Shown: positions 37,925 through 50,627 of the stretch, one piece after another
Layout: every line of letters starts with the position of its first letter
How positions within the stretch are numbered: the stretch's first letter is position 1
Assembly (NCBI RefSeq): GCF_055900595.2
Contig: NZ_CM148325.1
Direction: 5' to 3' (one strand)
DNA length: 64,000 nucleotides
Notes under the pieces: generated by a model
Seen by the model: only the letters and a program-made list of their open reading frames with translations
What the model was told of the DNA's origin: nothing
Databases searched by the model: none
Translations under genes and position numbers: made by a program

Positions 37925-38563
37925 ATGCCCGGGCGCTTTGAACTAAAACCAACCCTGGAGAAAGTCTGGCACGCGCCGGACAATTTTCGCTTCATGGACC
38001 CGCTACCGCCGATGCATCGTCGGGGGATCATTATTGCCGCTATTGTATTGGTGGTCGGATTTCTACTCCCGTCTGATGATACGCCAAACGCGCCGGTGGT
38101 GACGCGTGAAGCACAGTTAGATATTCAGTCGCAATCACAACCGCCGACAGAAGAACAGCTGCGGGCGCAATTAGTCACACCACAAAATGATCCTGATCAG
38201 GTGGCTCCGGTCGCTCCAGAACCGATACAGGAAGGCCAACCGGAAGAGCAGCCGCAAACCTCGCAAGTGCAACCTTTCCAGCCAGATAGCGGAATTGACA
38301 ATCAATGGCGCTCTTATCGTGTCGAACCCGGTAAAACAATGGCGCAGCTGTTCCGCGACCACGGACTGCCCGCTACCGATGTCTATGCAATGGCGCAGGT
38401 AGAAGGCGCAGATAAGCCACTGAGTAATTTGCAAAATGGGCAGATGGTGAAAATCCGCCAGAACGCCAGCGGCGTGGTGACGGGCTTAACCATTGATACG
38501 GGAAATAATCAACAGGTCCTGTTTACCCGCCAGCCGGATGGCAGTTTTATTCGCGCGCGGTAG
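37925..38563 (+). CDS. ytfB: OapA/LysM-domain cell-division-associated protein
   Basis: Start trimmed to [15 protein letters not shown] (about 212 aa); TM anchor, Pro/Gln-rich linker, C-terminal OapA-like domain. Confidence 0.75.
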
Positions 38564-39194
38564 ATGAAGGGTCAACCAGAAGCCAGCTAAGGATCGTCTC
38601 TTTGATGACCTTACGCCTGGCTTCCAGTGCCTGCGGTGAAACCATACTGATGTGATAAACCAGGCCAAGCGTATGTTGGTTGATCAAATAATATCCTCCA
38701 AGAGCAGCAATATTAATATTCACCTGCAACGGGTCGATATCTGGCTTAAAAATATTGCGCCGTTTGCCTTCAGCTAATAATGACTCCATTAACTGTAAGT
38801 GTGCGTGGTTAATTTCTAAAAGGCGCTGTGATTTTGCATAATGCACCCCTTTACTCTGGTTTTCACTATGCACAATTTTTAAAAACCAGGGGTTAGCAAT
38901 GTAATAATCCCAGGTGAAATCGATAATTTTCTCAATGGCTTTTTGTGGCGGAAGACCTGAGAAATCAAGGGATTTTTCTTTTTGCCGAATATCATTCCAG
39001 GTATATTCCAGCACTTCGATAAATAAATTTTCTTTATTACCAAAGTGATGATAAACCGTCTGTTTACTGCACTCCGCGGCCTTGACGATATTATCGACTC
39101 TGGCCCCTTCGTAACCATATTCGGCAAATTCATTAACCGCACATAACAACAGCTTTTCCTTCAGGCTTTGTACGTTGCTGGTATCAAGATACAT
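38547..39194 (-). CDS. TetR/AcrR-family transcriptional regulator, divergent from the island operon
   Basis: N-terminal TetR HTH ([45 protein letters not shown]); ATG at 39194 favoured over the GTG at 39254; occupies the position of K-12 ytfA. Confidence 0.7.
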
Positions 39195-39299
39195 TCCGCT
39201 TCCCCACGTCTTCTTCGTGATGACTATCTTAACCCGATTTGTTAGAAGCTCCACTAAAATGGCTAAAAACTCGCAATTTCATCGGGTTATCAAATGCTC

Positions 39300-39315
39300 T
39301 GTGATCATTATCGCA
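39300..39315. promoter_or_regulatory. CRP-like site TGTGA-N6-TCGCA in the divergent promoter region
   Basis: One mismatch to the TGTGA-N6-TCACA consensus; read by eye. Confidence 0.3.
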
Positions 39316-39316
39316 T

Positions 39317-39338
39317 ATCAACCAACTAGATGGTTGAT
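39317..39338. promoter_or_regulatory. Perfect inverted repeat ATCAACCA-N6-TGGTTGAT; candidate operator for the TetR-family regulator
   Basis: 22-bp palindrome between the divergent regulator and SDR genes, about 70 bp upstream of the SDR start. Confidence 0.4.
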
Positions 39339-39405
39339 CTTTCTTGCCACACATTGCAAGCTAATCGTCACTTAAGGAAATAATATTCAAAAAGAGGGTT
39401 ATTGT

Positions 39406-40197
39406 ATGAAGTCAACACGTCCTGTTGCTGTCATCACTGGAGCCGCACGTGGTATTGGAAAGGGCTGTGCACTGGAACTTGCGCGTGGCGGATTTAATCT
39501 GCTGATTAATGATCGTCCGGATGCCGACAGCGTAGAAAAATTACATGCCACACAACAAGAATGTCTGGCGGAAGGCGTGGAAGTGATTTGCTTCCCTGCT
39601 GATGTTGGCGATCTCTCCCTTCATGAAGAGATGCTCGACGCGGCGCAAAACCAGTGGGGACGTCTGGACTGTCTACTCAACAACGCAGGCATTTCAGTGA
39701 AAAAACGCGGTGACCTCCTCGACCTCGAACCAGACAGCTTCGACCAAAACATTGCCATTAACACCCGTGCGCCGTTCTTCCTTGCTCAGGCATTCAGTAA
39801 GCGATTACTGGCACAGCCGAAACCGGAAGCAGAACTGCCGCACCGCTCGATTATTTTTGTCAGTTCCATAAACGCCATCATGCTGGCGATGAATCGCGGC
39901 GAATATACCATTGCCAAAACTGCCGTCTCCGCCGCAGCTCGCCTGTTTGCCGCTCGCCTTTGCAATGAACAAATTGGCGTTTATGAAGTGCGCCCTGGCC
40001 TAATCAAAACCGATATGACCATTCCGGCAACGGCTTATTACGACGAACTGATTGCTAAGGGGTTAGTGCCGTGGGGACGTTGGGGTTATCCGGCTGATAT
40101 TGCCTCAACGGTCCGCGCGATGGCGGAAGGCAAACTGATTTACACCTGTGGTCAGGCGGTCGCCATCGACGGCGGCTTAAGTATGCCGCGCTTCTGA
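39406..40197 (+). CDS. Short-chain dehydrogenase/reductase (SDR)
   Basis: 263-aa ORF with the TGAARGIGKG Rossmann motif; AAGAGGG Shine-Dalgarno upstream. Confidence 0.75.
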   Translation: MKSTRPVAVITGAARGIGKGCALELARGGFNLLINDRPDADSVEKLHATQQECLAEGVEVICFPADVGDLSLHEEMLDAAQNQWGRLDCLLNNAGISVKKRGDLLDLEPDSFDQNIAINTRAPFFLAQAFSKRLLAQPKPEAELPHRSIIFVSSINAIMLAMNRGEYTIAKTAVSAAARLFAARLCNEQIGVYEVRPGLIKTDMTIPATAYYDELIAKGLVPWGRWGYPADIASTVRAMAEGKLIYTCGQAVAIDGGLSMPRF

Positions 40198-40206
40198 GGC
40201 TGAATC

Positions 40207-41049
40207 ATGAGAGATCTGTTACAACGCCCGGATTTATTCAGTATCAATACTGCGACACTGGGCTATAAAACACCGCTACCTGCCATTATTGATGCCTGCG
40301 CCGCACGCGGTATTGGCGCGATTGCCCCCTGGCGCAGGGAGTTACAGGGTGAAGATCTCCAACAAATCGCCCGCCAGCTTGCTGCCAGTAACATGAGCGT
40401 TTCCGGTTTGTGCCGTAGCACCTATTACACCGCGCCGACGCTGACGGAACGCAAACTGGCGATTGATGATAACCGCCGGGCGCTGGACGACGCCGCTGTA
40501 CTAAACGCCGCCTGTTATATGCAGGTGGTTGGCGGTCTGCCAATGGGAACAAAAGATCTGTACGAAGCGCGGGAACAAGTGAAACAAGGGATTCGCCAGT
40601 TGCTGCCACATTCGAAAGATGTCGGCGTGCCAATTGCGCTGGAGCCGCTGCACCCGATGACAGCTGCCGATCGCTCTTGCCTGTGCACGTTACGTCAGGC
40701 GCTGGACTGGTGTGATGAACTCGATCCCGATGGGGAGTTTGGCCTCGGCGTGGCGGTAGATGTCTACCACGTTTGGTGGGATCCGGATCTCGCCAGTCAG
40801 ATCCTGCGTGCCGGAAAACGCATCCTCGCGTTTCATGTTTCCGACTGGCTGGTGCCAACCACCGATTTAGTCAATGACCGGGGAATGCCGGGAGATGGCG
40901 TAATCAATATTCCGTCTATTCGTCGCCAGGTAGAAAATGCCGGATTTAACGGTGCTGTGGAACTGGAAATTTTCTCACCGTACTGGTGGCAGCAAGATAT
41001 TAACAGCACGTTGGATATTAGCGTCGATCGCATCGCGCATTATTGCTAA
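40207..41049 (+). CDS. Sugar phosphate isomerase/epimerase-like TIM-barrel protein (xylose isomerase-like fold)
   Basis: 280-aa ORF whose length and motif pattern fit the xylose isomerase-like TIM barrel family; 9-bp gap after the SDR gene. Confidence 0.65.
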   Translation: MRDLLQRPDLFSINTATLGYKTPLPAIIDACAARGIGAIAPWRRELQGEDLQQIARQLAASNMSVSGLCRSTYYTAPTLTERKLAIDDNRRALDDAAVLNAACYMQVVGGLPMGTKDLYEAREQVKQGIRQLLPHSKDVGVPIALEPLHPMTAADRSCLCTLRQALDWCDELDPDGEFGLGVAVDVYHVWWDPDLASQILRAGKRILAFHVSDWLVPTTDLVNDRGMPGDGVINIPSIRRQVENAGFNGAVELEIFSPYWWQQDINSTLDISVDRIAHYC

Positions 41050-41052
41050 GGA

Positions 41053-41835
41053 ATGATCATGAGTGACCAACCCGTTCTGTTCAGCAGAGCGGCGGCTTCC
41101 TGCCGCCTGACATTGAACCGTGAAGATAAATGTCATGCTATTAATGAAGAAATGATCGAATCTCTCGACCATTATTTAAATGAAATTGAAAACGACACCA
41201 CATTACGATTAGTCGAATTAACGGCAACCGGCGATAAATTCTTTTGTGCGGGCGGCGATATTAAATCGTGGTCGGCCTATTCGCCATTAGATATGGGCAG
41301 AAAATGGATTAAACGCGGCAATGACGTTTTTAATCGCCTGCGCAACTTACCCCAATTAACGGTTGCGAATCTCAACGGTCATACCATCGGCGGCGGTATT
41401 GAACTTGCCTTGTGCTGCGATATTCGTATTGCCCGCCCCAGTGCGAAATTCTCTAATCCGGAAGTAATGCTCGGCATGGTGCCTGGCTGGATGGGCATTG
41501 AACGCGTGCTTAATCAGGTCGGTCCGGTGGTCGGTCGCCAGATGCTGATGCTGGGTAAACGCCTGACGGCGCAGGAAGCTCAGGCGGCGAATTTAATTGA
41601 TGAAGTGGTAGAAAAAGAACAGGTGGAAAGCTGGATGGCGAATCAGTTAGCGCAGCTGGAAAAATGCGGTCCGGTGGCGCTCGCACATATCAAGCAACTG
41701 ATTCTGGCTCTAGAAAATAAACATGCTGATTACCCGCACCAGTTACTGGCTGGATTAATGTCCGCCACTCAGGATTGCCAGCAGGCGACGCGCGCATTTG
41801 CCGAAAAAAGTAGCGTGAGCTTCCAAAATCAATAA
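41053..41835 (+). CDS. Enoyl-CoA hydratase/isomerase (crotonase) family protein
   Basis: 260-aa ORF with FFCAGGDIKSW and GHTIGGGIELALCCD crotonase motifs. Confidence 0.75.
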   Translation: MIMSDQPVLFSRAAASCRLTLNREDKCHAINEEMIESLDHYLNEIENDTTLRLVELTATGDKFFCAGGDIKSWSAYSPLDMGRKWIKRGNDVFNRLRNLPQLTVANLNGHTIGGGIELALCCDIRIARPSAKFSNPEVMLGMVPGWMGIERVLNQVGPVVGRQMLMLGKRLTAQEAQAANLIDEVVEKEQVESWMANQLAQLEKCGPVALAHIKQLILALENKHADYPHQLLAGLMSATQDCQQATRAFAEKSSVSFQNQ

Positions 41836-41844
41836 GGAAATTGT

Positions 41845-43386
41845 ATGCGTAAGATAACAACCGCCGAGACACTGGCGGCGCAAATTCAGGACGGCGCAAC
41901 CATTGCCATTAGCGGTAATGGCGGCGGCATGGTGGAAGCGGACCATATTCTGGCTGCTATTGAAGCGCGTTTCCTGCAAACCGGACACCCGCGCGATCTG
42001 ACATTAATCCACTCACTGGGCATTGGCGATCGCGACTGCAAAGGCACTAACCGCTTCGCTCATGCAGAGATGCTCAAACGCATCATTGCCGGACATTTTA
42101 CCTGGTCGCCCAAGATGCAGGATCTGGTGAAAAACAATGCTATTGAAGCCTACTGCTTCCCTGGTGGCGTAATTCAGGCACTGCTGCGGGAGATCGGTGC
42201 CGGACGTCCAGGGCTTTTTACCCACGTTGGGCTGGGATCGTTTGTTGATCCGCGCAACGGCGGCGGTAAGTCGAACGCTAGCAGCACTGAGGATCTGGTA
42301 GAACTGATTGAAATCGACGGTGAAACCAAACTTCGTTATCGCCCCTTCAAAGTGGACTACGCGATTTTGCGTGGCACTTATGCCGATCCGCGTGGCAACG
42401 TCAGCCTCGAAGAAGAGGCGATTGATATGGATAGCTATTCCATGGCGCTGGCAGCACACAACAGCGGCGGCAAAGTGTTCGTACAGGTGCGCGATGTGCT
42501 GGAAGCTGGTGCCATTGAACCACGCCGGGTCAAATTACCGGGCATTCTGGTTGATGGCATCGTTGAACACCGCGAACAACCGCAAACCTATCTTGGCGGT
42601 TACGACCTGACCATCAGCGGTCAGCATCGCCGTCTAAGTTCTAACGACGCAATTGAACTGGTTAGTCATCCGGTGCGCCGCCTGATTGCCCGTCGGGCAG
42701 CACGCGAACTGGTGGCTGGCGCTTCAACCAACTTTGGCTTTGGCATTCCCGGCGGCATTCCTGGGGTTGCACTGCGCGAAGGCGTGCCTTATCAAAGTTT
42801 ATGGCTGAGCGTAGAACAGGGTGTACATAACGGCATGATGCTGGATGATGCTCTGTTCGGCTGCGCCCGCAACGCCGATGCCATTATTCCATCACTCGAT
42901 CAATTCGAATTCTACAGTGGCGGAGGGATCGATATCACCTTCCTCGGCATGGGAGAGATGGATCAGTACGGTAACGTCAACGTCTCCCATCTCAATGGCA
43001 ATCTCATTGGCCCCGGCGGATTTCTCGAAATTGCGCAAAACGCCCGTAAAGTGGTGTTCTGCGGCACGTTCGACGCCAAAGGTAGCACGATTGATGTAAC
43101 ACCAGATGGCTTGCATATCGCCCAGTCAGGTCAAATCCCTAAACTGGTTACCCAGGTGGAAAAAATCACTTTTAGCGCCGCCTACGCACAGCAAAGCGGT
43201 CAGGAAGTGTTGTATATCACTGAACGTGCAGTATTCCAGTTAACAGCAGAAGGCGTTGAATTAATTGAAATCGCACCAGGTGTGGAGATTGAGCGCGACA
43301 TTCTGCCGCATATGGCCTTCCGTCCAATTATCAATCAGCCACGCCTGATGGAAAGTAGCCTGTTTACGCCGATGGAGGATGCATGA
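41845..43386 (+). CDS. CoA-transferase family protein (fused alpha/beta, family I-like)
   Basis: 513-aa ORF with Gly-rich motifs typical of acyl-CoA:acetate/3-ketoacid CoA transferases and citrate lyase alpha-like proteins; 4-bp overlap with the next gene. Confidence 0.65.
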   Translation: MRKITTAETLAAQIQDGATIAISGNGGGMVEADHILAAIEARFLQTGHPRDLTLIHSLGIGDRDCKGTNRFAHAEMLKRIIAGHFTWSPKMQDLVKNNAIEAYCFPGGVIQALLREIGAGRPGLFTHVGLGSFVDPRNGGGKSNASSTEDLVELIEIDGETKLRYRPFKVDYAILRGTYADPRGNVSLEEEAIDMDSYSMALAAHNSGGKVFVQVRDVLEAGAIEPRRVKLPGILVDGIVEHREQPQTYLGGYDLTISGQHRRLSSNDAIELVSHPVRRLIARRAARELVAGASTNFGFGIPGGIPGVALREGVPYQSLWLSVEQGVHNGMMLDDALFGCARNADAIIPSLDQFEFYSGGGIDITFLGMGEMDQYGNVNVSHLNGNLIGPGGFLEIAQNARKVVFCGTFDAKGSTIDVTPDGLHIAQSGQIPKLVTQVEKITFSAAYAQQSGQEVLYITERAVFQLTAEGVELIEIAPGVEIERDILPHMAFRPIINQPRLMESSLFTPMEDA

Positions 43387-45455
43387 GTCAGCTTGATGAC
43401 ACCCTCCTTGATGCGCTGACGCACGTCACTTTCCCGAAGGGTTTTGCACAGGCAGAACCCGCATGGGTTGTCACGGTAGACGGTGTTGATTACCCACTCT
43501 GGCAAACAGATGCCCTGGTAGTCGGCAGTGGTGCAGCCGGGCTGCGTGCAGCTGTGGAACTTAAGCGCCGCCAGCAAAATGTGCTGATCGCCACCGCCGG
43601 GTTATATATGGGGACATCGGCATGTTCTGGTTCCGATAAACAGACGCTGTTTACCGCCGCTACCGCGGGCAACGGCGATAACTTCGCCAAACTGGCAGAG
43701 GCACTGGCGAGCGGCGGCGCAATGGATCACGATACCGCTTATGTTGAAGCGGTTGGTTCCCTGCACACTCTTGGCGGGTTGCAATATCTTGGTCTGGAAT
43801 TACCGGAAGATCGCTATGGCGCAATTCTTCGTTATCAAACCGACCATGACGAAGCCGGGCGAGCAACCTCGTGTGGGCCGCGGACCTCAAGGTTAATGGT
43901 GAAAGTACTGCTGGAAGAAGTACAGCGTCTCGCCATTCCAGTGTTGACCAGTGCAACAGTAATTAAACTGCTGCATCAGCGTGACGAAAACGGTGAAGAC
44001 CGCGTGGCGGGGGCAATCCTCGCGACCGGTCATCGTGCCCATAACCCATGGGGGCTGGCAATTGTGACTGCGCCCAATGTGGTACTGGCAACAGGAGGGC
44101 CTGGCGAGCTTTATCGTGACAGTGTGTACCCACACAAATGTTTCGGCTCGCTGGGGCTGGCGCTGGAAGAAGGTCTGACGTTAACGAATCTGACCGAAAG
44201 CCAGTTTGGTATAGGCACGCCGCGCAGCACCTTTCCGTGGAATTTATCCGGGACTTATGTACAGGTGATCCCATACATCTATTCGGTGGATGCCGGGGGC
44301 AACGAGTATAACTTCCTCGCAGATTACTATCGCACCACCCAGGAGCTGGCTTCAAACATCTTCCGTAAAGGCTATCAGTGGCCGTTTCACGCCACACGAG
44401 TGATGGATTTTGGCTCCAGCTTGTTAGATATGGCAGTAGCGCAAGAGCAGCAATCAGGACGTCAGGTATTTATGGATTTCAATCGCAATCCTGAACCTGT
44501 GCCGGGTGACCTGCCGTTCTCATTAGATCGACTGGACGACGACGTTCGCGCGTATCTGGAAAATAACGACGCTCTGGCACCATCGCCCATCGAACGACTG
44601 CAACGAATGAATCCGCTGTCTATCTCGCTGTATAAGATGCACGGTTACGATCTCACCACGCAGCCATTGCAGTTTGCCATGAATAATCAGCATATGAATG
44701 GCGGCATTGAAGTGGATATCTGGGGGCAAACCTCCCTGTCCGGCTGTTTCGCCGTGGGGGAAGTTGCTGGCACACACGGCGTCACTCGCCCTGGTGGTGC
44801 GGCATTGAATGCCGGGCAGGTTTTTGCTGTTCGTCTGGCACGTTTTATTGGTTGCACGCAAAAACGTAATATTGATGGAGATATAGCACAGCTGGTAGCT
44901 CCGGCACTGGCTTCTATAAGAGAGATCATTACTCAGGCGCACGATAACGGGACCGGGATGCCGTTGTCGGTTGTGAGGGAAAAAATTCAGGCACGAATGT
45001 CTGACCATGCGGGATTTATTTGTCATGCCGATAAAGTCCGACGCGCCACTCGTGATGCCCTGCTATTGAACGAATTTGTGCAACGGCATGGATTGGCAAT
45101 CAAACATGTGGGTGAAGTTGCCGAGCTGTTTATGTGGCGGCATATGGCGCTGACTTCTGCCGCGGTATTAACACAATTAACGCATTATATTGATGCTGGT
45201 GGTGGTAGCCGTGGGGCGCGTATGGTTATTGATCCACAAGGCAAATGCCTACCACAAACTCGTCGCGGCGCAAAAGAAGAATGGCGTTTTCGCTCTGAAC
45301 TCGCTGAAGACAAAAATCACAAATTAACAATTCAATATTCGCAAGGTTCTTTTATTACCGAAGTAAAGTCTTTACGTATGCAACCGTGTATTAACGGTAT
45401 TTACTTTGAAAAAAACTGGCCAGACTTTTTAAAGGGAGACATTTACACACAGTAA
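43383..45455 (+). CDS. FAD-dependent oxidoreductase of the succinate dehydrogenase/fumarate reductase/L-aspartate oxidase flavoprotein family, with a C-terminal extension
   Basis: 690-aa ORF with N-terminal VVGSGAAGLRAA dinucleotide-binding motif and C-terminal GEVAGTHGVTRPGGAALNAG motif. Confidence 0.7.
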   Translation: MSQLDDTLLDALTHVTFPKGFAQAEPAWVVTVDGVDYPLWQTDALVVGSGAAGLRAAVELKRRQQNVLIATAGLYMGTSACSGSDKQTLFTAATAGNGDNFAKLAEALASGGAMDHDTAYVEAVGSLHTLGGLQYLGLELPEDRYGAILRYQTDHDEAGRATSCGPRTSRLMVKVLLEEVQRLAIPVLTSATVIKLLHQRDENGEDRVAGAILATGHRAHNPWGLAIVTAPNVVLATGGPGELYRDSVYPHKCFGSLGLALEEGLTLTNLTESQFGIGTPRSTFPWNLSGTYVQVIPYIYSVDAGGNEYNFLADYYRTTQELASNIFRKGYQWPFHATRVMDFGSSLLDMAVAQEQQSGRQVFMDFNRNPEPVPGDLPFSLDRLDDDVRAYLENNDALAPSPIERLQRMNPLSISLYKMHGYDLTTQPLQFAMNNQHMNGGIEVDIWGQTSLSGCFAVGEVAGTHGVTRPGGAALNAGQVFAVRLARFIGCTQKRNIDGDIAQLVAPALASIREIITQAHDNGTGMPLSVVREKIQARMSDHAGFICHADKVRRATRDALLLNEFVQRHGLAIKHVGEVAELFMWRHMALTSAAVLTQLTHYIDAGGGSRGARMVIDPQGKCLPQTRRGAKEEWRFRSELAEDKNHKLTIQYSQGSFITEVKSLRMQPCINGIYFEKNWPDFLKGDIYTQ

Positions 45456-45547
45456 TTTTCAATATTTACTCTGTACCTGATTTTTATTGCCTATTACATG
45501 GAAATACCAACAACCAGGGTTTATTAATATAATTAAAAGGTTTAAAA

Positions 45548-46825
45548 ATGAATAAAATAAAGAATTATCGATGGCATATGATTGCCCTCGTATGCTTTAT
45601 CACTGTAATCAATTATCTGGACAGAACGGCGTTAGGTATTGCGGCTCCAACGATTATGGAGACAACCGGAATAACCAAAGAACAATATTCATGGATTGTC
45701 AGTGCATTCCAGTTGGCCTATACATTGGGGCAACCGGTAATGGGCTTCTTTATTGATACCGTGGGTCTGAAGTTAAGTTTTGCGATATGTGCCGCAATCT
45801 GGGGCCTGGCGACAATGGGGCATGCCTTGACAGGAACATGGTCAGGTCTGGCATTTATGCGCGCCCTGATGGGTTTCAGCGAAGCATCGGCAATTCCTGC
45901 GGGTGTAAAAACCGCATCAACATGGTTCCCGGCAAAAGAGCGTGGCGTGGCGACAGGTGTTTTCAATATGGGCACCTCACTCGGCGCGATGCTTGCTCCA
46001 CCGTTGATTGCCTGGTGCATTATGTTTCATAGCTGGCAATTTGCGTTTATTGTCTCAGGTAGCCTTGCTTTACTCGCGGCTTTATTTTGGTTCTTTTGTT
46101 ATAAAGATCCAAAAGATGCTAAACGCCTTTCTGATGAAGAGCGCCACTATATTGAGTCTGGGCAAGAACAGCATCTTAAAACAGATAAGAAAGAAAAAAC
46201 GTCAATCAAGCATATCCTCAGCCAACGTAATTTCTGGGGGATTGGCATCGCGCGTTTTCTCGCTGACCCGGCATGGGGAACCATTAACTTCTGGGTACCG
46301 ATTTTCTTCGTCGAAACGCTGCATTTTAGCCTGAAAGAAATTGCCATGTTCGTCTGGCTGCCTTTCCTGCTGGGCGATCTCGGCTGTTTAGCCAGTGGTT
46401 TTGTCGCGAAGTTCTTCCACGATCGCGGCGTGAGTTTAATTAACTCACGAAGAATTACCTTCACTATTGCAGCCGTCATTATGATGACGATTGGTCTGGT
46501 GAGTATTGTCGAAAATCCCTACATCGCCGTATTACTGATTAGCATTGGCGCATTCTCGCATCAATGTCTTTCTACTGTTGCAGCAACTCTGGGCGGTGAC
46601 CTATTCAAAAAAGACGAAGTAGCTACCGCTGTGGGTATGGCAGGAGCCTGTGCATGGAGCGGTCAGTTGATTTTCAACCTGTTTATCGGGGCATTCGTTC
46701 ACATTATTGGCTTCGCGCCGTTCTTTATTGCCCTGGCTTTCTTTGACATTATTGGTGCTATTGCGTTGTGGACGCTTATCAAAGTTAAAGATGAAGAACC
46801 ACAAGTACAGTTAGCTACCCACTAA
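45548..46825 (+). CDS. MFS transporter, anion:cation symporter (ACS) family, ExuT/GudP-like (acidic sugar or organic acid uptake)
   Basis: 425-aa 12-TM ORF whose N-terminus (NYLDRTALGIAAPTIME) resembles hexuronate/glucarate transporters. Confidence 0.8.
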   Translation: MNKIKNYRWHMIALVCFITVINYLDRTALGIAAPTIMETTGITKEQYSWIVSAFQLAYTLGQPVMGFFIDTVGLKLSFAICAAIWGLATMGHALTGTWSGLAFMRALMGFSEASAIPAGVKTASTWFPAKERGVATGVFNMGTSLGAMLAPPLIAWCIMFHSWQFAFIVSGSLALLAALFWFFCYKDPKDAKRLSDEERHYIESGQEQHLKTDKKEKTSIKHILSQRNFWGIGIARFLADPAWGTINFWVPIFFVETLHFSLKEIAMFVWLPFLLGDLGCLASGFVAKFFHDRGVSLINSRRITFTIAAVIMMTIGLVSIVENPYIAVLLISIGAFSHQCLSTVAATLGGDLFKKDEVATAVGMAGACAWSGQLIFNLFIGAFVHIIGFAPFFIALAFFDIIGAIALWTLIKVKDEEPQVQLATH

Positions 46826-47094
46826 TTATTTTAAATAAAAACGCTATAATTGAGGTTATGGCGTTTTTAAAGAAGCTTGAGTTATCGAACCTAGCTTACC
46901 AACGCGTTGTCAGTCATCTCCCCCCTCCCTGGTGCATCGTTATATCCGTGATGAGCGATTTTTGATATTAATATCTTTCACCATCCGCTATTTTCACCAC
47001 TTCAGAAAACAAACTTATTTTTATTAATATCAATTCTTTTTCTTTGAACATTCAACTGCGATATTTGTAAAAATATTAAACAGGCAACAATAAA

Positions 47095-47889
47095 ATGACA
47101 TTACCAACAACTATTTATTCATTCCCCGCATATTTACCTCGTTTTTCGTCCACCGACAAACCAGCAAAACTAAAATTTCATCAATACGCACGCGCTACAT
47201 TACTGTCAAATCGTGGAAGAGATCATAATTGCGATGGCAGACGTACTGTTGAGATCCACAAACTAGATCTCTCAGACTGGCAAGCATTCAATAAGCTAGC
47301 GACGAGGTGTAATACTTACGATGGAATAACAATGAATGGTGATAATTCTTTTGGATGGAACCATGAAGCTACATTAGATAATATTCACGCCCAGAAATAC
47401 AATAAAGCTTACGCGGGTGCGCGGTTAACCGCAGAACTGAAATATTTATTGCAAGATGTCGAATCCTTCGAACCCAACAGTAAATACACAATACACGAAG
47501 TGGTTTTGGGACCTGGTTATGGTACTCCAGACTATACCGGCCAAACGATAGGATACGTTGTAACCCTTCCTGCCCAAATGCCTAATTGCTGGTCATCTGA
47601 ACTACCAACAATCGATCTTTATATCGACCAACTTCGCACTGTTACAGGCGTTTCTAATGCCCTCGGATTCATCATTGCTGCATTGCTAAACGCGTATTCT
47701 GATTTACCCCATGATTTGAAAATTGGTCTACGTTCCTTATCAAATTCAGCCGCAATCTACTCGGGTTTAGGTTTCGAGCGAGTGCCGCAGGACCGAGACA
47801 TAAGGAGTGATCGTATGCATCTAACGCCAGCAAACCATCCTGACTTATGGACACAAGAGAATGGTGAATGGATCTACTTGCGAAATTAA
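47095..47889 (+). CDS. yjfZ: Uncharacterized protein YjfZ
   Basis: 264-aa ORF in an AT-rich context; length and position next to rplI match K-12 yjfZ as I recall it. Confidence 0.65.
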   Translation: MTLPTTIYSFPAYLPRFSSTDKPAKLKFHQYARATLLSNRGRDHNCDGRRTVEIHKLDLSDWQAFNKLATRCNTYDGITMNGDNSFGWNHEATLDNIHAQKYNKAYAGARLTAELKYLLQDVESFEPNSKYTIHEVVLGPGYGTPDYTGQTIGYVVTLPAQMPNCWSSELPTIDLYIDQLRTVTGVSNALGFIIAALLNAYSDLPHDLKIGLRSLSNSAAIYSGLGFERVPQDRDIRSDRMHLTPANHPDLWTQENGEWIYLRN

Positions 47890-47910
47890 TGCCTGACGAA
47901 AAATAGAAAG

Positions 47911-47939
47911 CAAAACGCCGACCAATGGTCGGCGTTTTT
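47911..47939. terminator. Bidirectional rho-independent terminator between yjfZ and the rpsF operon
   Basis: ACGCCGACC-AATG-GGTCGGCGT stem flanked by AAAA upstream and TTTTT downstream. Confidence 0.7.
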
Positions 47940-47959
47940 ACGTCTCGTTGAATAACGAA

Positions 47960-48421
<462 letters not shown>

Positions 48422-50075: not shown

Positions 50076-50627
50076 TCAACGAATAACGACTTCCGGATCC
50101 GGCTCATGAGTAATGCGATTACGTAAGTCGCGGCGCATAATTTCTATTATCCAGAACCAGAAAATGTGCCCAAGGATTTCAGATGCATATTCGTCAAAAG
50201 GCAATTGAGTGAGCGGCGGCGTTAAATTCAGCGCCGGGCAAAATATACCGTGGACTGCCACTGTCACAATAAGCCCTGCTAATATCCCCTGCCATAATTT
50301 CACTTTCGGGAAAATTTCCGCGACCACACAATACCCTATCGCAAAAACCAGTGAGAAGATGATATGCGTCACCATCACCGGGTTGATAATATGTTCCGAG
50401 AATGTATACACAGTTTGGGTTGGGTCGATCCCTAAATAATCCCGTAGAAAGATATACGGCGGATTAAACTCATCGCGACCACCGGAAAATGTGCGCGGTG
50501 GCAAGGGAACTTCCGCTCCCCATTTAACAAATGCTGAAATAATTCCTGAAAGTACACCCACAAGTAACGCAACGCCATAACGGCGACGCTGCGGATCCGT
50601 TCTGACAAACAATCCGTTGATAGCCAT
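50076..50627 (-). CDS. YagU/DUF1440-family inner membrane protein
   Basis: 183-aa ORF with RRRYG...[15 protein letters not shown]...[12 protein letters not shown]...RRDLRNRIT, resembling YagU as I recall it; I do not recall a gene here in K-12. Confidence 0.65.

Follow-up and report, generated by a model that had tools for sequence, protein, structure and literature searches.

An AT-rich gene, yjfZ, lies directly between a six-gene accessory operon and the ribosomal protein gene rplI in the 64,000-nucleotide stretch of contig NZ_CM148325.1 (assembly GCF_055900595.2) that was analyzed here and is referred to as the window. The question raised by this locus is whether yjfZ marks the edge, or is part of the cargo, of a horizontally acquired metabolic island, as had been proposed in an original prediction, or is an accessory gene in its own right, and what its product could be. 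The evidence leaned modestly toward yjfZ being a stand-alone, H-NS-bound, Escherichia-restricted accessory gene that would encode a divergent acyltransferase of the GNAT (Gcn5-related N-acetyltransferase) fold. The gene was already known, and the corrected reading of the locus changes little of the biology; the new elements are the description of five haplotypes, a distribution that an exhaustive search confirmed to be limited to Escherichia, and the prediction of a GNAT fold, through which the family becomes open to testing.

Distribution of yjfZ in the ytfB-rplI interval

yjfZ is an ATG-to-TAA open reading frame (ORF) of the window at 47095-47889 on the plus strand, encoding 264 aa, exactly as first predicted. 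The ORF matched Pfam family PF10887/DUF2686 (E 1.7e-151; 503.4 bits, gathering cutoff 25), with residues 5-264 aligned to profile positions 17-285. The same ORF is named yjfZ by the RefSeq annotation of E. coli genomes, and its product was 96% identical to YjfZ of the K-12 strain DH1, in which the gene holds the same convergent position against rplI. The gene is thus the ortholog of K-12 yjfZ, an already catalogued E. coli y-gene. Its flanks were likewise as described: the 5′ neighbor is the major facilitator superfamily (MFS) transporter gene of the accessory operon (45548-46825, plus strand), and the 3′ neighbor is the convergent rplI (47960-48409, minus strand), followed by rpsR, priB and rpsF. 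The predicted AT-richness of yjfZ held as well, since the GC content of the coding sequence was 42.4%, and 35.5% at third codon positions (GC3), versus 51.1% for the window; this placed the gene in the lowest 4.7% of 795-bp intervals of the window. Of the long AT-rich spacers claimed on both sides, only the upstream one stood (46826-47094; 269 bp, 32.7% GC). The downstream spacer (47890-47959) is 70 bp of 44.3% GC and consists mostly of the yjfZ/rplI terminator hairpin. The gene-proximal 168 bp of the upstream spacer, kept in all yjfZ-bearing strains, had a GC content of 29.8%.

Haplotypes of the ytfB-rplI interval were counted by querying 5,426 complete E. coli genomes for diagnostic junctions, with a coverage of at least 80% required. 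The collection is skewed to clinical and laboratory strains, and the percentages hold for the database and cannot be read as frequencies in nature. Five haplotypes together accounted for ~99.5% of genomes and were essentially exhaustive and mutually exclusive. The K-12-type junction between a TetR remnant and yjfZ was present in 2,228 genomes, and the window-type junction between the MFS gene and yjfZ, with the operon, in 289 (5%). The operon and MFS gene were followed by a hipA/helix-turn-helix (HTH) segment in 1,041-1,047 genomes and, with nothing in between, by rplI in 360. In a further 1,478 genomes the operon was joined to rplI through a tripartite ATP-independent periplasmic (TRAP) transporter. 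The interval is a five-haplotype polymorphism. The yjfZ coding sequence itself was found in 2,538 of the 5,426 genomes (47%), with a full-length match in 2,523. Approximately 88% of the yjfZ-bearing genomes were without the operon, and ~2,880 operon-bearing genomes were without yjfZ. yjfZ is an ordinary accessory gene that is inherited independently of the neighboring operon. It is no conserved signature gene of E. coli and would be a poor universal marker. Comparative genomics of the interval gave a divided answer with regard to the original prediction: yjfZ was independent of the island, and it was neither uniformly conserved nor ordinary in composition.

The haplotypes were illustrated by individual strains. 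RMDEC465, which is 99.7% identical to the window, carried ytfB, a divergent TetR gene, the six-gene operon ending in the MFS gene, yjfZ and rplI, and DH1 carried ytfB, a TetR gene "missing N-terminus" (pseudogene ytfA), yjfZ and rplI. A derivative of Nissle 1917 carried the operon and the MFS gene, with genes for a HipA-family toxin and an HTH protein where yjfZ would be. In loci L009 and L011, a three-gene TRAP transporter replaced the MFS gene and abutted rplI directly. At the empty site (locus L010), only 101 bp separated the MFS gene from rplI, and this intergenic sequence was not the simple sum of the window's flanks. The HipA-family toxin gene had a frameshift in SYNB1934, a Nissle 1917 derivative (locus L003, 5889-7158), and was intact, encoding 422 aa, in other strains (locus L028, 5846-7114). 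The best NCBIfam match of the toxin was YjjJ at 41.5 bits, far under the model cutoff of 401, and its partner was an HTH_31/HipB-like protein of 163 aa.

The limits of the exchanged DNA were placed by pairwise BLAST. Nissle-type DNA was collinear with the window to 46869 and again from 47907. The 1,037 bp between these break-points (46870-47906, 40.7% GC), referred to as the yjfZ segment, were exchanged for a 2,209-bp hipA/HTH module in B2-type strains and were missing from the empty-site and TRAP haplotypes. Genomes without yjfZ matched the window only from 47904-47907 onward. The left edge of the segment lay directly 3′ of a terminator-like hairpin of the MFS gene (46836-46869, plus strand), an inverted repeat with 14-nt arms that are 93% complementary, followed by TTTTTA. 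This hairpin parts yjfZ from the operon transcript, and the 44 bp at the start of the upstream spacer (46826-46869), in which it falls, lie outside the segment. The right edge lay just before a bidirectional intrinsic terminator of the convergent yjfZ and rplI (47912-47938), which had perfect 13-nt arms, was also found by a terminator scan, and was kept in 5,424 of 5,426 genomes; all haplotypes share it as their right edge. The suggestion that yjfZ is variable, AT-rich DNA in its own right was therefore upheld: its composition looks foreign, and it occupies a discrete segment that can be replaced by hipA/HTH or by nothing. Its companion, that yjfZ belongs to the acquired DNA of the operon, was contradicted by the 2,228 genomes with yjfZ only, by the genomes with the operon only, and by the terminator between the two. 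The ~1-kb slot between the MFS and rplI terminators would accordingly be viewed as holding interchangeable alleles: yjfZ, the hipA/HTH toxin-antitoxin module, or nothing.

Between ytfB and rplI in the window-type haplotype, no integrase, transposase, tRNA/tmRNA site or target-site duplication was found, so that none of the marks of an integrated island or mobile element (integrase, flanking repeats, attachment site) was present. yjfZ had no match in phages and none in true plasmids; the "plasmid" records were all non-mobilizable E. coli sequences of 0.37-4.9 Mb, several of them chromosome-sized. A mobile-element origin of yjfZ was discounted on these grounds and on the lack of repeats at the segment ends. 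Because there are no such repeats, we can only infer how the segment is exchanged, and the most economical mechanism would be that alleles replace one another through homologous recombination within the conserved flanks. Rfam searches of the spacers for RNA elements gave only sub-threshold matches, on the terminator hairpin.

The history of the operon was read from the K-12 haplotype. In the window the operon (39406-46825, plus strand; ORFs and the annotation of RMDEC465) comprises genes for a short-chain dehydrogenase/reductase (SDR) family reductase, a sugar-phosphate isomerase/epimerase, an enoyl-coenzyme A (CoA) hydratase, a CoA transferase, a flavin adenine dinucleotide (FAD)-binding protein and the MFS transporter, and it is divergent from a TetR/AcrR regulator gene (38547-39254, minus strand; ORF and annotations). 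Homology of DH1 to the window covered ytfB and the 3′ portion of the TetR gene, ended at 38949, and resumed at 46927. In between, DH1 retained a scrap of ~100 bp (locus L002, 7902-8003) that was 81% identical to 39495-39596, within the first operon gene (SDR reductase). The K-12 arrangement is thus that of the window after two deletions, 38950-39494 and 39597-46926. The 3′ portion of the TetR gene survives in K-12 as pseudogene ytfA, and K-12-type strains retain only 46927-47094 of the region upstream of yjfZ. Because the TetR fragment and the first-gene scrap persist, the operon is ancestral and was lost by deletion in K-12-type strains, with remnants left. Since the second deletion reaches 57 bp into the yjfZ segment instead of stopping at its edge, the K-12 haplotype descends from an operon-MFS-yjfZ arrangement like that of the window. 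The proposal that yjfZ marks an original insertion boundary did not survive this comparison, as the operon is no insertion relative to K-12, which carries the remnants of a deletion. As a deletion derivative, K-12 serves badly for deciding "island versus backbone" at ytfB-rplI.

The operon scrap in K-12-type strains was only 81% identical to the window, with flanks at ~94%; either a divergent allele of the operon was lost from these strains, or the scrap decayed before or after the deletion. In O157:H7 and several other K-12-type strains, an IS609-type element (IS200/IS605 TnpA and a TnpB RNA-guided nuclease) was inserted in the TetR remnant, splitting the ytfA pseudogene in two (locus L016, 231-1878; L014, 2932-4561; also L017, L020, L021 and L025).

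The YjfZ/YjiC family and its predicted fold

The E. coli paralog of YjfZ was YjiC (b4325), to which it was 42% identical over residues 40-262. YjiC has a longer N-terminus (276 aa in all) than YjfZ. Its gene was present in 4,895 of the 5,426 genomes (90%), and was thus commoner than yjfZ, at a fixed site beside uxuR and iraD. Unlike yjfZ, it was syntenic in E. albertii, where the protein was ~61% identical to E. coli YjiC. YjiC-type fragments were identified by their genomic context, uxuA-uxuB-uxuR. All 12 aligned family members matched DUF2686, and 59 columns were invariant between YjfZ and YjiC proteins at ~40% identity. YjfZ was 34-39% identical to every YjiC-type sequence and branched outside all of them. 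Because it was this distant from each, either the YjfZ and YjiC lineages split before the divergence of E. coli and E. albertii, or yjfZ came from an unsampled relative. yjiC has been reported to be induced ~11-fold by azidothymidine (AZT) in a LexA-independent manner (PMC11228462).

The quantitative polymerase chain reaction primers, probe and Sanger primers published for "YjfZ" in PMC11057252 all mapped inside K-12 yjiC (locus L008, 6542-7313) with 0-1 mismatch. None mapped to yjfZ within 2 mismatches, and that assay therefore detects the paralog yjiC. YahL and YdjO, which are of similar length and are listed together with YjfZ in the same paper, were considered as further paralogs and rejected, as alignment and Pfam showed no relation.

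By sequence search the YjfZ/YjiC (DUF2686) family was restricted to Escherichia. Apart from one false match, a repetitive, low-complexity protein of 3,635 aa with 12 matching stretches, exhaustive scanning of 1.84 billion representatives with phmmer yielded nothing but YjfZ/YjiC fragments (35-62% identity). A word-indexed search returned close YjfZ copies. When 100,044 species, each represented by one genome, were scanned with a pattern, the matches were confined to the yjiC-like gene of E. albertii and one further contig, JAIJJM010000835.1. This contig of 1,283 bp, labelled "MAG: Collinsella sp.", was 95.5% identical over its full length to K-12-type ytfA-yjfZ-rplI, and is almost certainly E. 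coli DNA mis-binned into an actinobacterial metagenome-assembled genome (MAG). The family profile also matched a segment of ribosomal protein uS12 weakly at YjfZ residues 21-66 (~47155-47292; E 0.6-1.3). This resemblance (…KP…AR.RL…G.GHN…VV.IR) was not significant and is most likely due to chance, although the gene adjoins a ribosomal protein operon.

Structures were predicted with AlphaFold2 from a 12-sequence family alignment with YjfZ as query and an 11-sequence alignment with YjiC as query. The YjfZ model had a mean predicted local distance difference test score (pLDDT) of 52 and a predicted template modeling score (pTM) of 0.54, with means of ~55-80 over 10-residue blocks in the C-terminal half. 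The YjiC model had a mean pLDDT of 55 and a pTM of 0.60, with block means mostly of 70-91 in the C-terminal half. Both models showed the order beta1-alpha1-alpha2-beta2-beta3-beta4-alpha3-beta5-alpha4-beta6 followed by a C-terminal hairpin, which is the order of elements in the GNAT fold. In a Foldseek comparison with the viral structures of BFVD, GNAT acetyltransferases made up nearly all of the named top matches (best E 1.7e-5).

GNATs bind the pyrophosphate of acyl-CoA at the beta4-loop-alpha3 element, through a motif A of the form Q/R-x-x-G-x-G/A. The longest invariant block of the family, T182-V-x-G185-V-[S/A]-N188-x-x-G191-F-x-x-AALLNA (residues 182-200), sat on the predicted beta4-loop-alpha3 element, and invariant residues were concentrated there. 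The position of motif A was occupied by T182-V-T-G185-V-S187 in YjfZ and T-V-T-G-V-A in YjiC, of which T, V, G and V were invariant, as were N188 and G191. On these models YjfZ and YjiC probably have the GNAT fold. Actual acyl-transfer activity is a more tentative proposition, on the doubtful side of even. If active, YjfZ would be a cytoplasmic enzyme that acylates an amine of a small molecule or macromolecule with acyl-CoA as donor. The prediction offers a cheap and concrete test, of acyl-CoA binding and acyl transfer, for two uncharacterized E. coli proteins.

YjfZ differed from GNAT enzymes such as DfoC, BH2621, the RimJ/RimL type and AAC(6′) in having no detectable sequence similarity to them. 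It also differed in that ~50 residues at its N-terminus are disordered, its first two helices are separated by an insertion of ~30 residues, and its C-terminus carries an additional beta-hairpin. The N-termini of YjfZ and YjiC are Ser/Thr/Pro-rich and nearly without acidic residues, a composition that leaves a small probability for secreted effectors.

Regulation, selection and the competing explanations

The AT-rich region upstream of yjfZ within the segment (46870-47094, plus strand; 225 bp, 34.7% GC) presumably contains the gene's own promoter. A consensus promoter scan upstream of yjfZ found none, and a relaxed scan gave weak sigma-70-like sites with 8 of 12 matches at best. In K-12, Shimada et al. 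listed the yjfZ/ytfA spacer among the RpoD constitutive-promoter sites and flagged it as an H-NS site (PMC3946193); the hexamers printed there were not present in the window. The spacer between yjiC and iraD is an H-NS-bound "promoter island" (PMC3661553). Because of the K-12 H-NS listings and the ~30% GC of the retained 168-bp upstream region, xenogeneic silencing is likely to be the default state of yjfZ in the window's strain. Transcription from its own AT-rich, H-NS-bound promoter would leave yjfZ largely silent in standard culture.

The coding sequence bore the marks of selection. Five distinct yjfZ alleles from diverse strains all kept the 264-aa frame despite synonymous divergence (dS) of up to 0.11, and their pairwise ratios of nonsynonymous to synonymous divergence (dN/dS) were 0.16-0.52, below 1 in every pair. 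yjfZ is under weak purifying selection, and it is functional, dispensable, and occasionally lost. In GCA_026649785.1 no gene was called at the frameshifted yjfZ described below, and four similar places were found besides; frameshifted copies of this kind suggest recurrent pseudogenization.

Several results weighed against the reading of yjfZ as an H-NS-bound gene for a GNAT-fold acyltransferase. Structure prediction is the sole source of the GNAT assignment, and it drew on a shallow alignment of 11-12 sequences from two subfamilies, which yielded the low mean pLDDT values of 52 and 55 and left the N-terminal ~110 residues unmodelled. Both models share this one alignment and so are not independent. 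At the motif A position the G and [A/S] fit, and the first residue is T instead of Q/R. No sequence or profile similarity to a recognized GNAT family was found: Pfam at E ≤ 10 matched DUF2686 only in all 12 family members, phmmer and hmmsearch of the PDB with the family gave nothing significant and no GNAT, and hhalign against a purpose-built RimJ-family alignment, the sole GNAT family compared by profile, gave a probability of 0.65%. NCBIfam, PHROGs and PADLOC had no match to YjfZ. The gene is monocistronic, so its context offers no clue to a substrate, and no function is given for yjfZ in the literature that mentions it. The H-NS data are from K-12, not from the window's strain. At the level of the locus, the segment ends had no direct or inverted repeats beyond the 11-nt GGCGTTTTTA[A/C], the tail of both terminators. 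The dN/dS of yjfZ was also several-fold higher than that of the MFS gene, rpsF and ulaF (0.00-0.17), and a 1-bp insertion frameshifted the gene at approximately codon 63 in the window-type strain GCA_026649785.1 (locus L019, 4951-6085). The higher ratio and the frameshifted copy are compatible with a gene drifting toward loss.

That drift is the core of one competing explanation, in which yjfZ is a decaying or functionless remnant, a fast-evolving yjiC duplicate or import kept by chance, and the GNAT-like prediction has no functional meaning. Its absence from 53% of genomes, its dN/dS relative to neighboring genes (0.01-0.17), the frameshifted copy together with many truncated YjfZ ORF clusters in databases, and its silencing by H-NS in K-12 would all follow. 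We nevertheless consider this unlikely, given the ratios below 1, the intact frame of the five alleles, the 2,523 genomes with a full-length match, and the 59 invariant YjfZ/YjiC columns, which cluster in the predicted core elements at only ~40% identity. Far less room is left for a metabolic island that was acquired horizontally and inserted between ytfB and rplI, with yjfZ as its edge or cargo. The AT-richness of yjfZ, its place beside the operon, and the lack of the operon in K-12 had made an island attractive. Against it, the TetR fragment and decayed operon scrap of K-12-type strains point to deletion and not to non-insertion, the K-12 end-point at 46926/46927 falls inside the yjfZ segment, a terminator separates the MFS gene from yjfZ, and the locus has neither integrase nor flanking repeats. 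The haplotype counts contradict a boundary outright, and we regard the island explanation as very improbable.

A different proposal would make YjfZ a solitary GNAT-type toxin resembling the tRNA-acetylating TacT, AtaT or KacT, held in check by H-NS silencing in place of an antitoxin, in a slot where growth-arrest modules (yjfZ versus hipA/HTH) are exchanged. It draws on the structural matches to toxins of these three types, on the AT-rich, H-NS-associated character of yjfZ, and on the alternative occupant of the slot, a kinase toxin of the HipA family and its HTH partner. We hold it to be quite improbable. The type II toxins (TacT, AtaT, KacT/7byy) are encoded in one operon with an adjoining, usually overlapping antitoxin gene, whereas yjfZ has no antitoxin-sized ORF up- or downstream: 46826-47094 contained no ORF of at least 40 aa and only chance ORFs of 26-35 aa, and the rplI terminator follows directly. 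At 264 aa, YjfZ is also ~90 residues longer than the matched toxin chains (154-180 residues). The toxin matches scored no better, and were no more specific, than those to siderophore, aminoglycoside and ribosomal-protein acetyltransferases, PADLOC and PHROGs gave no match, and the paralog yjiC, at a fixed syntenic site in 90% of strains, is unlike a toxin-antitoxin module. A bolder construction, with similarly little credence, would see DUF2686 as an Escherichia-only GNAT branch, beyond recognition by sequence, with a new acceptor substrate, yjfZ as a silenced, growth-modulating or toxin-like acyltransferase, and the slot as one that swaps growth-arrest modules (GNAT versus HipA kinase and HTH) by recombination. 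The preferred reading, of a stand-alone accessory gene for a divergent GNAT-fold protein, also aligns yjfZ with the H-NS-silenced AT-rich orphan genes of E. coli, with which it shares low GC and GC3, an H-NS site in K-12, confinement to Escherichia, and presence/absence polymorphism. It differs from them in having no mobility genes, repeats or tRNA at its site, no occurrence on phages or true plasmids, and no nameable donor.

Other features of the window

Two further AT-rich troughs were noted near the operon. One (38750-39050; GC 0.36) falls inside the gene of the TetR regulator, upstream of the region of divergent promoters between it and the operon, and the other (45350-45650; GC 0.32) extends across the interval that separates the FAD-binding gene from the MFS gene. 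The MFS gene itself has a GC content of 46%, lower than the remaining operon, and it is this gene whose place the TRAP transporter takes in other strains. On the far side of the ribosomal operon, a 183-aa ORF annotated as "YagU family protein" (50076-50627, minus strand) lies between yjfY and ulaF in the window and in RMDEC465. It had no NCBIfam match and was not found in the same interval of DH1, the Nissle derivative or the other strains examined. The YagU-family ORF is another small accessory insertion near the ribosomal operon.

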